Shown here one piece after another: positions 15,913 to 21,430 of a DNA stretch of 64,000 bases (position 1 is its first letter; every line of letters begins with the position of its first letter). The DNA is from a virus, in IMG/VR virus record IMGVR_UViG_3300032287_003559, positions 96,001 to 160,000 of that record. One strand, 5' to 3'. The notes beneath the pieces are model-generated. The model saw only the letters and a list, made by a program, of their open reading frames with translations. It ran no database searches and had not been told where the DNA came from. Position numbers and translations under genes: made by a program.

Positions 15913-17220
<1,308 letters not shown>

Positions 17221-17222
17221 AC

Positions 17223-17250
17223 CTTAACCAATTCTTAGTGGACTTTAATT
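17223..17250 (+). promoter_or_regulatory. putative Pho box (SphR/PhoB site) upstream of pstS
   Basis: CTTAACC, CTTAGTG and TTTAATT at 11- and 10-bp spacing resemble the cyanobacterial YTTAAYYW repeat. Confidence 0.6.
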
Positions 17251-17303
17251 TTTTTCTCTAGTAGAATTACTTACGAAGTCGTTACTTTTACTTCAAACTT
17301 TTT

Positions 17304-18269
17304 ATGAAACTCAAAAACTTTATTGCTATTGGTCTGGTTGCTGCTCCTGTTGGTGCTATTGCTGGACCTGCTTTGAATGGTGCAGGTGCCACCTTCCCTG
17401 CACCTCTTTATCAACGTTGGTTCCAAGATTATGCACGAACTTCTGGGAGTAGGGTTAATTATCAGTCCGTTGGTTCTGGCGCTGGTATTCGTCAATTTGT
17501 TGCAGGCACAGTTGACTTCGCAGCAAGCGACGAACCAATCAAACCCGCAGAAGCAGCAAAAGTGAAGCGTGGTGTCGTTCAGTTCCCTGCTGTGGGTGGA
17601 ACGATCGCTGTTGCTTATAATAAACCCGGTTGCACTCTGAAACTCACTCAGAAGCAGACTGTAGATATCTTTGCTGGACGCATTAAGGATTGGAACAAAC
17701 TACCTAACTGTGGTAATGGTCCCATTCGCGTTGTTCATCGTTCTGATGGTTCTGGAACCACCTTTGCTTTCACTAACTCTCTGGAAGCATTTGGTGGTTG
17801 GACTTATGGCGTTGCAAAGGCAGTCAACTGGCCTACTGGTGTTGGTGCAAAAGGTAATGAAGGTGTTTCTGGAACTATTCGTAACACTCCTGGTGCGATT
17901 GGTTATGTGAATACTGGATTTATAAAAGCAAACAAACTTCAAGCAGCAGCAATTCAAAATAAGGCAGGGCAGTTTGTTCTTCCTTCTGCTAAGTCTGGTG
18001 CTGCTGCTCTGAATAGTATTTCTCTGGATAGCAATCTTGCAGGAGAAAATCCTAATCCTGCAGGTGCTGGTGCATATCCTATCTCCACACTTACTTGGAT
18101 TCTTGCTTATAAGACTGGTAATGGTGCTGAGACAGATGACCTCCAGAAAACCTTTAACTATATTCTGAGCGGTAAGGCACAGATGATTGCTGATGATCTG
18201 GGTTATGTTCCTCTTGCAGGAAGCGTTCTAAACAAGTCTCGTATTGCTGTGAAGCGTATTGGTCAGTAA
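17304..18269 (+). CDS. pstS: phosphate ABC transporter substrate-binding protein
   Basis: GAGATFPAPLY, YQSVGSGAG, RSDGSGTT, GNEGV, YPI. Confidence 0.97.
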   Translation: MKLKNFIAIGLVAAPVGAIAGPALNGAGATFPAPLYQRWFQDYARTSGSRVNYQSVGSGAGIRQFVAGTVDFAASDEPIKPAEAAKVKRGVVQFPAVGGTIAVAYNKPGCTLKLTQKQTVDIFAGRIKDWNKLPNCGNGPIRVVHRSDGSGTTFAFTNSLEAFGGWTYGVAKAVNWPTGVGAKGNEGVSGTIRNTPGAIGYVNTGFIKANKLQAAAIQNKAGQFVLPSAKSGAAALNSISLDSNLAGENPNPAGAGAYPISTLTWILAYKTGNGAETDDLQKTFNYILSGKAQMIADDLGYVPLAGSVLNKSRIAVKRIGQ

Positions 18270-18279
18270 ATGTTAACAG

Positions 18280-18315
18280 GAGGGGCTTGACGGTCCCTCT
18301 TTTTTTCTATATAAT
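18280..18315 (+). terminator. terminator hairpin overlapping an early promoter
   Basis: GAGGGGC-TTGACG-GTCCCTC + T run; TTGACG-17-TATAAT. Confidence 0.75.
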
Positions 18316-18333
18316 ACTGTAACAATTCGTAAT
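18316..18333 (-). promoter_or_regulatory. putative HLR1 (RpaB) site over the hli transcription start
   Basis: Minus strand reads ATTACGAA-TT-GTTACAGT, versus the (G/T)TTACA(T/A)(T/A)-N2 direct-repeat consensus. Confidence 0.45.
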
Positions 18334-18342
18334 AAAACGAAA

Positions 18343-18552
18343 ATGACTGTAACAAAAAATGAATTTGGTCAAATGAATATGTGGGCAAAAGAACCCTCTA
18401 TGTATATGACAAAAGAAGATCTTGAGCGTTATGGAATTGAACCATATGCTGAAAAGGCAGAAAAAATGAATGGTCGTTGGGCAATGATGGGATTTGTTGC
18501 TGGTGTTATTTCTTATGCTATCACTGGTAACTTCTTCTTTGGTGTATTCTGA
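18343..18552 (+). CDS. hli: high-light-inducible protein
   Basis: AEKMNGRWAMMGF chlorophyll-binding motif. Confidence 0.93.
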   Translation: MTVTKNEFGQMNMWAKEPSMYMTKEDLERYGIEPYAEKAEKMNGRWAMMGFVAGVISYAITGNFFFGVF

Positions 18553-18638
18553 TGACTGAGTTTATTTTCACTTTCACTGGTATTGCATTTTTGGTTCTTC
18601 TGAGTTATTCTGTAGAGAAAGTTTGCGAAACATACTAA
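18552..18638 (+). CDS. 28-aa hydrophobic peptide
   Basis: MTEFIFTFTGIAFLVLLSYSVEKVCETY; TGATG and TAATG coupling at both ends. Confidence 0.55.
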   Translation: MTEFIFTFTGIAFLVLLSYSVEKVCETY

Positions 18639-18913
18639 TGAGTGCTGATATGCTCGGGCAATTTTCAATTGCTCTTGAAAAACTTGGATGGTCTAATGAT
18701 GATGTAATCTCAGTTGAAATTGGTGGTGTAGCAGTCACAGGAACTGCAACTCACTCAGATGCAAATCCAAAGTGGGCAAAGCCATACGGAACTGTAACTT
18801 ATCAGAATGATGCATTTATTGTCATCAAAAATAAAACCAGAAATCCTGTGGTTTCGTCCCAACCAAATCCTGAACTTAAACAACAACACCCTTATAAAGG
18901 AGAAAACAAATGA
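18638..18913 (+). CDS. hypothetical protein
   Basis: ORF coupled by TAATG and ATGA overlaps. Confidence 0.7.
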   Translation: MSADMLGQFSIALEKLGWSNDDVISVEIGGVAVTGTATHSDANPKWAKPYGTVTYQNDAFIVIKNKTRNPVVSSQPNPELKQQHPYKGENK

Positions 18914-19029
18914 ACAAAATTTTTACTGAGCGCGCAGAGCGTATTAATGGATGGGCTGCAATGATCGGATTTGTTGCTGCTGCTGGTTCTTATCTGGTTA
19001 CTGGGCAAATTATTCCCGGTGTATTTTGA
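18910..19029 (+). CDS. hli: high-light-inducible protein (39 aa, missing from ORF track)
   Basis: MNKIFTERAERINGWAAMIGFVAAAGSYLVTGQIIPGVF; AExxNG and TGQIIPG motifs; upstream AGGAG. Confidence 0.93.
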   Translation: MNKIFTERAERINGWAAMIGFVAAAGSYLVTGQIIPGVF

Positions 19030-19040
19030 TGGAGGTTCCT

Positions 19041-19568
19041 ATGCGTAAAGAAGGTTATCAAATTCCTCAAGTTGAGTTTGTGTTCCGTGAAGCAGGTGAG
19101 TTTGTAACACGTACTTCTACCGAACTTTTCAATAGCAAGCGTGTTGTAATCTTCTCTCTTCCTGGTGCGTTTACTCCTACATGTAGTGCCTATCAACTTC
19201 CTGGTTTTGAGGAAAAGTTTGAAGACTTTAAAGCACTTGGTATTGATGAGATTTATTGCATCTCTGTGAATGATGGTTTTGTAATGAATGCTTGGGCACA
19301 AGATCAAAATATTCAAAACGTAAAACTAATTCCCGATGGAAATGCATATTTCACCCGTTCGATGGGTATGCTCGTCAATAAGTCGAACCTTGGGTTCGGT
19401 GAGCGTAGTTGGCGTTACGCTGCTGTGGTAAAAGACGGTATTATTGAAAAACTGTTTGTTGAACCTGGAAAGCGTGATAATTCCCCAGAAGATCCTTATG
19501 GTGAAACAACTCCAGAAAATGTTTTGAATTATATTAGATCATCTGTATTAGAGATGGAACTTGTTTGA
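19041..19568 (+). CDS. type II peroxiredoxin (Prx5-like)
   Basis: FSLPGAFTPTCS, SVND.FVM.AW, PDGN..FT, RSWRYA; GGAGG before ATG 19041. Confidence 0.93.
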   Translation: MRKEGYQIPQVEFVFREAGEFVTRTSTELFNSKRVVIFSLPGAFTPTCSAYQLPGFEEKFEDFKALGIDEIYCISVNDGFVMNAWAQDQNIQNVKLIPDGNAYFTRSMGMLVNKSNLGFGERSWRYAAVVKDGIIEKLFVEPGKRDNSPEDPYGETTPENVLNYIRSSVLEMELV

Positions 19569-19596: not shown

Positions 19597-19627
19597 ACTA
19601 AATACATTTACTCTATGTTTGGGAAAG

Positions 19628-20323
19628 ATGAGAGTAGATCTTCATAACTTCTTTAAGCATTATGATGAAAATAATCCAAAACATGTTGCAGCAGTAGAGC
19701 AACTTGAAGTGGATCTTGCAAGTAAGAATCCAGATTTGATCGATGATGCCTCAAACTGGGTTCGCATCTATAGAACAGTTCCTGCAGTTCCGGGAATTCT
19801 TCCAGTTCCTTATTATCCACAGACAGATAACTACAGAGACGCACAAAGAACCTGTAACTCATCTTCTTGTGCGATGTGTCTAGAATACTTTAAACCAGGC
19901 ACGTTACAAGGGGCAAAGGGCGATGATGCCTATATTCAAAAGGTATTTGCTATTGGTGATACAACTGATCACTCCGTCCAGACGAAAGTTCTGGAAGGTT
20001 ATGGAGTTAAGTCACACTTCAGTTACAATCTTTCTTTCTCTGATCTTGATCGTGAGCTTGCCGCTGGGAGACCTGTCGTTATCGGGATTCTTCATAGGGG
20101 CACTTTATCTGCACCTACTGGTGGGCACATGGTTGTAGTCATCGGTAAAAAGGGTGAAGACTACGTAGTAAATGATCCGTATGGATCTTTGAATGATGGT
20201 TATACGGGAGCAGTAACCAACGGTAAAGGTGCTGTATATAAGAAATCAGATCTGATGTATCGTTGGTTAGATCATGGTAAGGATAGAACTGGTTGGGGTC
20301 GTATTTTTGATATAAAAAAGTAG
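19628..20323 (+). CDS. C39-like cysteine peptidase domain protein (endolysin N-terminal part)
   Basis: VPYYPQTDN...RTCNSSSCAM, GGHMVVVIG, VNDPYG (C-H-D triad). Confidence 0.85.
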   Translation: MRVDLHNFFKHYDENNPKHVAAVEQLEVDLASKNPDLIDDASNWVRIYRTVPAVPGILPVPYYPQTDNYRDAQRTCNSSSCAMCLEYFKPGTLQGAKGDDAYIQKVFAIGDTTDHSVQTKVLEGYGVKSHFSYNLSFSDLDRELAAGRPVVIGILHRGTLSAPTGGHMVVVIGKKGEDYVVNDPYGSLNDGYTGAVTNGKGAVYKKSDLMYRWLDHGKDRTGWGRIFDIKK

Positions 20324-20811
20324 AACCAACACCACCACCAAAAAATGACATCCCTTTGTGTGGTGTTGAATTAATTAAATCTTTTGAGGGATGTCGTTTA
20401 AATGCATATCCTGATCCATTAACCGGAGGTCTTCCAATCACAATCGGTTGGGGGAGTACAAAAGATTTTGATCGAACTCCTTTTAAGATGGGTAAAGTGA
20501 TTACTCAAAAGTATGCAGACACTCTACTTGAGTTTGAGTTAAGAAATAGATACCTTCCTTCCCTACAAAAAATACCATATTGGGACGAAATGAATGAAAA
20601 TCAAAGAGGGGCTTTGCTTTGCTTTGCTTACAATCTTGGTGCAGATTTTTATGGTAATTCTAACTTCAGTACTATTACAAGGATCTTAAAGAATAGGGAA
20701 TGGAATAAAGTTCCTGATGCACTATACCTTTACCGTAATCCAGGAACTAAAGTTGAAGCAGGATTAGTAAGAAGAAGAGTTGCTGAAGGAAATCTTTGGT
20801 CTAGACCATAA
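20320..20811 (+). CDS. GH24/T4-type lysozyme domain, probably reached by -1 frameshift from the peptidase
   Basis: IKSFEG.RL.AY.D....TIGWG, AL..FAYNLG, GLVRRR.AE; the -1 frame is open through AAAAAAG (20314-20320) and has only a TTG start. Confidence 0.88.
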   Translation, partial: VEPTPPPKNDIPLCGVELIKSFEGCRLNAYPDPLTGGLPITIGWGSTKDFDRTPFKMGKVITQKYADTLLEFELRNRYLPSLQKIPYWDEMNENQRGALLCFAYNLGADFYGNSNFSTITRILKNREWNKVPDALYLYRNPGTKVEAGLVRRRVAEGNLWSRP

Positions 20812-21142
20812 AAGGAACTGCTACACCTTCATTAATCATTCTTTCATTTACCGTGACTGGATCTCCTACAAAATAAAGAGTTCCAAGTATTCTTCCGTAC
20901 TTATCTTCTTTTGTAGTCTCAATAATCCATTCACCTTCTTTTGCGAGTTCTTTTTTTAACCATTCTTTTGCTGCAAGACCTCTTTCTTTTTCTTCTATGT
21001 CCAAAGTTCTTGTTTCTGCGGCATTAATACCTTTAAGGCGAACTCTTTGAGATAAGGTAATTCCAAATCCCAAATCAATATCAACGTCAACTGTATCACC
21101 ATCAATGATTCTTTTGATTTTCTTTATTTTGTATTGATACAT
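20801..21142 (-). CDS. thermonuclease (SNase)-family protein
   Basis: IIDGDTVD, RVRLKGINAAE, DKYGRILG. Confidence 0.88.
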   Translation of the reverse strand: MYQYKIKKIKRIIDGDTVDVDIDLGFGITLSQRVRLKGINAAETRTLDIEEKERGLAAKEWLKKELAKEGEWIIETTKEDKYGRILGTLYFVGDPVTVNERMINEGVAVPFMV

Positions 21143-21242
21143 TTTCTTGATTTGCAATGAGTAATATTTTATAAATGACCCAAGCGACTCCTATGAGTCC
21201 AATACCCAATAGTATATTTACACTCCAGACTACCTCTTTCAT
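21102..21242 (-). CDS. 46-aa single-TM hypothetical protein
   Basis: MKEVVWSVNILLGIGLIGVAWVIYKILL...; ATGA overlap with upstream ORF. Confidence 0.55.
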   Translation of the reverse strand: MKEVVWSVNILLGIGLIGVAWVIYKILLIANQENVSIQNKENQKNH

Positions 21243-21430
21243 TTTCCCTCTTGGCGATGTATCCAAGTTTTAAGTTCATGTAAATATTGTCTAAGCATGT
21301 CTGCTTTTTGCAGATGCCAAGTATCGCCACTCTTAAAGTACTCTTGAGTGTGATTGTCTATTGCTTTAAGGATATTGTGGATGGGAGCATTCCAAGGAGC
21401 TCTTTCATCCGTGTTCCATTCTCTGGGCAT
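21239..21430 (-). CDS. hypothetical protein
   Basis: 63-aa ORF in the minus-strand mini-operon. Confidence 0.65.
   Translation of the reverse strand: MPREWNTDERAPWNAPIHNILKAIDNHTQEYFKSGDTWHLQKADMLRQYLHELKTWIHRQEGK

Follow-up and report, generated by a model that had tools for sequence, protein, structure and literature searches.

How is a phage lysozyme made when its reading frame has no ATG and opens, in the -1 frame, on the last codons of a peptidase gene? The question arises in a stretch of 64,000 nucleotides (hereafter the window, to which all coordinates refer) taken from the IMG/VR virus record IMGVR_UViG_3300032287_003559, which is 175 kb long and 82% complete. A preliminary description of this DNA had proposed that ribosomes shift into the -1 frame at the end of the peptidase gene. 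The same reading is reached here from a comparison of related loci: judged from the sequences, the locus is very probably a -1 programmed ribosomal frameshift cassette that yields a peptidase and a peptidase-lysozyme fusion.

The phage is a freshwater T4-like cyanomyovirus of the Kyanoviridae. Its nearest cultured relatives are the Synechococcus phages S-SRM01 and S-PM2, at about 70% nucleotide identity (69% for S-PM2). The region 5' of the peptidase gene (15967-19568) encodes AhcY (SAH hydrolase), PstS, a high-light-inducible protein and a peroxiredoxin, and the peroxiredoxin-peptidase gene order is common to the window and phages DSL-LC02 and DSL-LC03. On the other side, a staphylococcal-nuclease-like gene on the minus strand (20801-21157) overlaps the final 11 nt of the lysozyme, and is followed by another minus-strand ORF (21102-21266) of 54 aa with one hydrophobic stretch.

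Two reading frames and the junction between them

The 0-frame ORF (19628-20323, plus strand) encodes 231 aa from the ATG at 19628 and ends in K-K-stop; the mechanical start of the ORF is a TTG at 19619, ahead of this ATG. Its identification as a C39 peptidase is borne out by the profile, the fold and the residues. The protein scores 53.6 bits against Pfam Peptidase_C39_2 (PF13529; cut-off 24), and its Gln/Cys/His/Asp set is conserved, residues Q65, C76, C81, H167 and D183 being invariant in 26 homologs. A sequence search against PDB chains gave no match. The AlphaFold model (pLDDT 85) is that of a papain-like cysteine peptidase, and its best Foldseek match is 3erv, a C39-like peptidase from B. 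anthracis (E 7e-6). Other close folds are the peptidase domains of PCAT1 and ComA and the phytochelatin-synthase-like enzyme Alr0975, with a pseudomurein endoisopeptidase lower in the ranking.

The peptidase ends with the 0-frame codons GAT ATA AAA AAG TAG. These contain the slippery heptamer A_AAA_AAG (20314-20320) in the X_XXY_YYZ phase, directly followed by the 0-frame stop TAG (20321-20323), an arrangement known as a "shifty stop". Six nucleotides past the heptamer begins a perfect 9-bp stem, S1, which encloses a 24-nt loop; its 5' arm (20327-20335) lies within linker codons and its 3' arm (20360-20368) within the G-V-E codons of the lysozyme N-terminus. The heptamer, its phase and the stem are thus confirmed to the base as the preliminary description had given them.

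Beginning at 20320, the -1 frame runs for 163 codons and a stop (20809-20811), ending at 20811 on the plus strand. It reads V-E-P-T-P-P-P-K-N-D-I-P-L-C-G-V-E-L-I-K, which confirms the earlier reading of a Pro-rich linker that leads straight into a GH24 lysozyme. The domain scores 81.4 bits against Pfam Phage_lysozyme (PF00959; cut-off 22.3). Alignment to solved GH24 lysozymes starts at "CGVELIK" and matches the Glu, Asp and Thr of the FEG, YxD and TIG motifs; in the solved lysozyme 9kbq, the same motifs line up with FEG, YPD and TIGWG of the window. The sizes of the two predicted products, 231 aa and 394 aa (231 + 163), follow from the coordinates, and the pair is supported by the comparison described below.

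The lysozyme had also been described as having neither an ATG nor a ribosome binding site of its own. It does lack an ATG, but an in-frame TTG (20356-20358) had been overlooked, the sole alternative start ahead of the catalytic Glu. This TTG stands at the end of the 5' arm of a second predicted helix (S2, below) and adjoins the 3' arm of S1, with no purine-rich Shine-Dalgarno (SD) sequence upstream. Such sequences are absent from many cyanobacterial and cyanophage genes, and the missing binding site is therefore weak evidence. The locus might then consist of two separate genes, the lysozyme being initiated at TTG 20356 (GTG or TTG in relatives), perhaps after termination of the peptidase, with the heptamer as mere K-K codons and the stem in some other role, e.g., mRNA stability. 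Initiation at the TTG, which lies 7 codons before the Glu of FEG, could give a complete 151-aa lysozyme; this is also where the alignment to solved GH24 lysozymes begins, which would make the product a whole domain.

A one-base difference at the A run would also change the reading of the junction. Homopolymers are error-prone, and A7 in place of A6 would give a plain fusion; the locus could thus be a sequencing error or a recently broken fusion, i.e., a pseudogene. The A6 run is no assembly slip. Contigs from three other studies (X2 record 7, X3 record 16 and X4 record 24), compared as assembled contigs rather than raw reads, span it without an indel, and the same run occurs in 111 loci drawn from many metagenomes as well as in Sanger-sequenced S-PM2. 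Furthermore, the lysozyme frame remains unbroken, catalytic motifs included, across 60-80% identity. Artefact or decay is accordingly an exceedingly improbable account of the locus.

The junction in related phages

Two scans of IMG/VR, with the peptidases of the window and of S-PM2 as queries, together with four GenBank loci gave a set of 165 related loci. These fall into several arrangements: i) a heptamer class, in which an in-phase heptamer is followed after 0-1 codon by a 0-frame stop and the lysozyme is encoded in the -1 frame (111 of the 165 loci, with 79 distinct junctions); ii) an ATGA class, in which the lysozyme starts from an ATG of its own, overlapping the stop as ATGA, and there is no heptamer (21 loci); iii) loci with no lysozyme within 400 nt (about 25); and iv) a few in-frame fusions. 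S-PM2 belongs to the heptamer class. The slippery site is thus kept in phase by these homologs. In 70 of the 79 distinct junctions the 0-frame stop follows the heptamer immediately; in the other 9 a single codon intervenes. In a peptidase tree (FastTree, weakly supported), the frameshift state is spread throughout and the other states arise many times.

These counts bear on separate initiation. No ATG is present in 105 of the 111 heptamer-class loci, and some GTG or TTG is present in about half of the distinct junctions; in 42 of 79, S-PM2 included, the interval from the heptamer to the catalytic Glu is free of ATG, GTG and TTG alike. Split arrangements with their own starts do exist in relatives, but the lineages that truly use one have an ATG or GTG in an ATGA or GTGA overlap and have lost both heptamer and stem. 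In the window, moreover, TTG 20356 lies within predicted helices and has no SD sequence. Two independently started genes are therefore very improbable here.

Stand-alone lysozymes of the ATGA class (L051, L055, L067, L071 and others; also L166 and L167, from DSL-LC02 and DSL-LC03) carry an extra N-terminal segment of ~60 aa that is absent from the frameshift class.

Several loci combine or exchange these states. The heptamer and an ATGA start occur together in S-SRM01 and in L119; in L153 the heptamer is gone and the lysozyme starts at a GTGA overlap. In other loci A7 replaces A6, giving in-frame fusions that retain the stem (L143/L185; L165 and L181-L184, four IMG/VR contigs), and the nearest relatives of these alleles carry A6. 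Four separate metagenome assemblies contain the A7 form, which makes it probable that the allele is real. With an A7-type fusion as the query, a protein collection gave 3170 matches at E<=1e-10; the majority of those listed are 390-410 aa long and contain both Pfam domains, and several have the junction ...FDVKKVE..., identical to the predicted transframe sequence. Stand-alone peptidases and stand-alone lysozymes both occur in relatives as well, which indicates that each piece is viable alone.

The A7 alleles and the homopolymeric nature of the shift site are also consistent with transcriptional slippage. RNA polymerase would add one A to the A6 run, some mRNAs would then carry A7, and the fusion would be in frame, as it is when A7 is in the DNA. 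Productive slippage by bacterial RNA polymerases is not known to occur on runs this short, needing about 9 or more. A polymerase needs neither the codon phase nor a stem 5-7 nt downstream, yet both are conserved, as are the G at position 7 of the heptamer and the adjacent stop. Slippage during transcription is accordingly very improbable, and a slip of the ribosome remains the preferred reading.

A different type of fusion was seen in Synechococcus phage ACG-2014f (L004, 2024-2070) and in L172 and L175. In these the peptidase and lysozyme are fused in frame and A_AAA_AAG is in phase; the -1 frame runs into a stop one codon on (K-K-V-stop), with a G+C-rich 6-bp stem beginning 5 nt downstream. 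A slip there would give the peptidase alone, i.e., the same two products in the topology of dnaX. The heptamer in this type of fusion, known from only three distinct sequences, could be due to chance, and it is absent from other marine in-frame fusions.

Modules appear to have been shuffled at the junction (window versus L005-L013, L018, L030 and L033). The peptidases closest to that of the window (92%) are joined to lysozymes that are only 62-64% identical, and the lysozymes closest to that of the window (81-82%) are paired with peptidases of 83-88%. The stem family of the window matches the relatives of its lysozyme, not those of its peptidase. The invariant heptamer region may serve as a recombination joint.

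In the GenBank records the peptidase and the lysozyme are annotated as genes apart or as truncated ones, and no CDS joins them. In S-PM2 the "putative lysin" p157 (L002, 2454-2672) is a 72-aa fragment from an internal ATG and lacks the catalytic Glu; the open -1 frame extends back to the peptidase heptamer.

RNA structure downstream of the heptamer

Stems are present in 78 of the 79 distinct heptamer-class junctions. Their length is 6-14 bp, with a median of 10, and they begin 2-9 nt past the heptamer. Among them are 56 distinct 5' arms, and at least four stem families occupy the same place with unrelated sequences. The 3' arm is always placed where the lysozyme domain opens, within its first codons, and its partner in the linker, the 5' arm, has changed to match. 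The best stem score past the heptamer averages 10.2 in 37 distinct relatives as compared with 5.2 (sd 1.2) in shuffles, with p<=0.05 in 35 of the 37. The 21 loci of the ATGA class served as a negative control; their stem score is 4.9 and the heptamer is absent. Where the lysozyme has its own start, heptamer and stem are thus both gone.

Covariation of the stem was examined within families. Since a MAFFT alignment of all 37 junctions set the stem families one codon out of register, three families were folded separately. RNAalifold found compensatory pairs at 3 of 11, 2 of 9 and 2 of 11 positions. This within-family covariation is modest, and the 3' arms are in conserved codons; the strongest signal is the one between families, whose stems are unrelated and which are not phylogenetically independent samples. 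Compensatory change in the stem is found at both levels.

In a run labelled RNA-Seq that is probably DNA and contains only relatives (X20), a contig diverges from the window at 20324, right past the heptamer and stop. It has another stem, C/G-rich and of 8 bp, like that of L048, which makes one more independent stem solution.

A second helix, S2, can be drawn in the window. Its 5' arm (20343-20356, plus strand) lies inside the S1 loop and its 3' arm (20386-20399, plus strand) in the codons E-G-C-R-L of the lysozyme. The helix has 14 bp, including 2 G-U pairs, and none of 300 shuffles gave one as good. Combined with S1, this helix would produce an H-type pseudoknot. The same pairing occurs in L027 to L031. 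More generally, a second helix is found in 24 of the 45 distinct junctions with loops of at least 14 nt as compared with 1 of the 36 short-loop junctions, and the loop motif co-occurs with its downstream partner in 20 of 22 versus 8 of 59 cases, counts that are not corrected for relatedness. The arms of S2 lie in conserved peptide motifs (I/V-P and F-E-G-C), and part of its conservation may therefore be due to coding. RNAfold of 20314-20405 picks S2 over S1; the program cannot draw pseudoknots, and the result is neutral on one.

From the pairing, the stimulator in the window is likely an H-type pseudoknot made of S1 and S2. The heptamer and stem of the signal that had been described as of the dnaX/IS type, with a 3' hairpin, therefore stand, and the stimulator in the window is probably a pseudoknot rather than a plain hairpin. 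S2 is limited to some lineages; S-PM2 and the short-loop families have a plain hairpin.

Predicted products and known systems

A ribosome translating the peptidase would reach A_AAA_AAG with two Lys tRNAs in its P and A sites, a stop as the next codon and an RNA structure at the mRNA entrance: S1, in this sub-lineage probably extended by S2. A fraction of the ribosomes would slip back by one base, the two Lys tRNAs re-pairing in the -1 frame, read K-K-V-E-P-T-P-P-P-K... and continue through the GH24 lysozyme domain. Those that do not slip would make the 231-aa peptidase and those that do the 394-aa peptidase-linker-lysozyme; free lysozyme would not be produced. We infer the slip itself and its efficiency, the cutting of peptidoglycan by the peptidase and the action of the products in lysis; the fixed ratio and the endolysin role given in the preliminary description have the same standing.

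The locus contains the sole GH24 match in the 175-kb record, 82% complete, and searches for Amidase_2, SLT and M23 domains in that record gave no matches; no holin was identified. As the only match of these four kinds, the locus is the best endolysin candidate in the record. It may alternatively encode a virion-associated lysin.

The Pfam domain of the peptidase begins at about residue 58. The preceding helical segment, residues 1-52 (codons at 19628-19783, plus strand), forms the interface of a modelled homodimer, which scores 0.67 as compared with 0.01 for the best of three controls. The model runs share at least 66% of contacts, with a partner pLDDT of at least 84. Among proteins solved as same-chain pairs, 20 of 30 reached the mark used for this score, as compared with 1 of 23 among those solved as single chains; these benchmark counts are only rough because the author's own alignment was used. 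The model supports, short of showing, binding of two peptidases through residues 1-52. The predicted peptidase and the predicted fusion both carry this segment and could therefore pair with each other; the modelled interface suggests that a peptidase/fusion pair may form in this way.

A wider proposal, speculative and rather unlikely as it stands, is that of a recoding-controlled heteromeric lysin. Slip efficiency, which would differ between hairpin and pseudoknot variants, would determine how much peptidase homodimer forms relative to peptidase/fusion heterodimer through the shared modelled dimerisation module, and A6/A7 changes and ATGA re-splitting would switch lineages between fixed-ratio, all-fusion and two-gene designs.

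The phage genes known for -1 frameshifting are mainly those of tail-assembly chaperones and of capsid and tail proteins. A full-text literature search, thin on subscription journals, found no description of frameshifting in a cyanophage lysin or in an endolysin of this kind, in agreement with the preliminary description, which knew of no such recoding-controlled lysis enzyme; proteomic detection of S-PM2 p156/p157 was not found in the same literature. As read from the sequences, the mechanism would be canonical and the novelty would lie in its occurrence in a lysis enzyme, which would be added to the short list of -1-frameshifting phage genes. Annotation would be corrected throughout one clade of T4-like cyanophages, including the 72-aa "putative lysin" of S-PM2; otherwise, gene callers and metagenome pipelines would keep reporting start-less or truncated lysozymes in the abundant Synechococcus phages of fresh and coastal waters. 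The hairpin, pseudoknot, A7-fusion and ATGA-split alleles would constitute a natural series in which to ask why a ratio of one- to two-domain lysin is kept.

One of the closest precedents for the signal is E. coli dnaX. Its A_AAA_AAG, with a stem-loop ~6 nt downstream, gives the two products tau and gamma in a ratio set by the efficiency of the slip. The window cassette has the same heptamer and the same spacing of the downstream stem, and would likewise give two products from one locus. In dnaX, however, the slip ends translation early and the shorter product is the frameshifted one, whereas the slip in the window would add a second enzyme domain. The 0-frame stop abuts the slip site in the window, unlike in dnaX. 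dnaX also has an upstream SD-like stimulator, which is not universal; in the window there is a TGGGG ~15 nt upstream of the heptamer, but its sequence is dictated by the conserved codons for G-W-G-R.

Another close precedent is the IS3 family (IS911, IS150), in which OrfA and OrfAB are made by means of A_AAA_AAG or a similar site near the end of the upstream ORF and a downstream stem-loop or pseudoknot. There, as predicted for the window, a protein of two domains arises when the slip joins the two ORFs, and the upstream product is made alongside it. The IS3 product is a transposase, whereas that of the window would be a phage cell-wall hydrolase, and the -1 ORF of the window overlaps the upstream one by only a few nucleotides.

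Among lysins, the endolysins CTP1L, CD27L and Lys170 use an internal translation start to make a full-length and a shorter chain, which co-assemble. They resemble the window in that one lysin locus gives a longer and a shorter chain; for the window, co-assembly is a result of modelling only. In those endolysins, initiation is internal and in frame and yields the C-terminal binding domain as the short chain, whereas the window would use recoding and its short chain would be the N-terminal catalytic peptidase. Finally, the in-frame fusions of marine cyanomyoviruses (Synechococcus phage ACG-2014f, about 398-407 aa) have the same two domains in the same order, joined by a short linker; unlike the window cassette, they are encoded by a single ORF that needs no recoding, in most cases without the heptamer.
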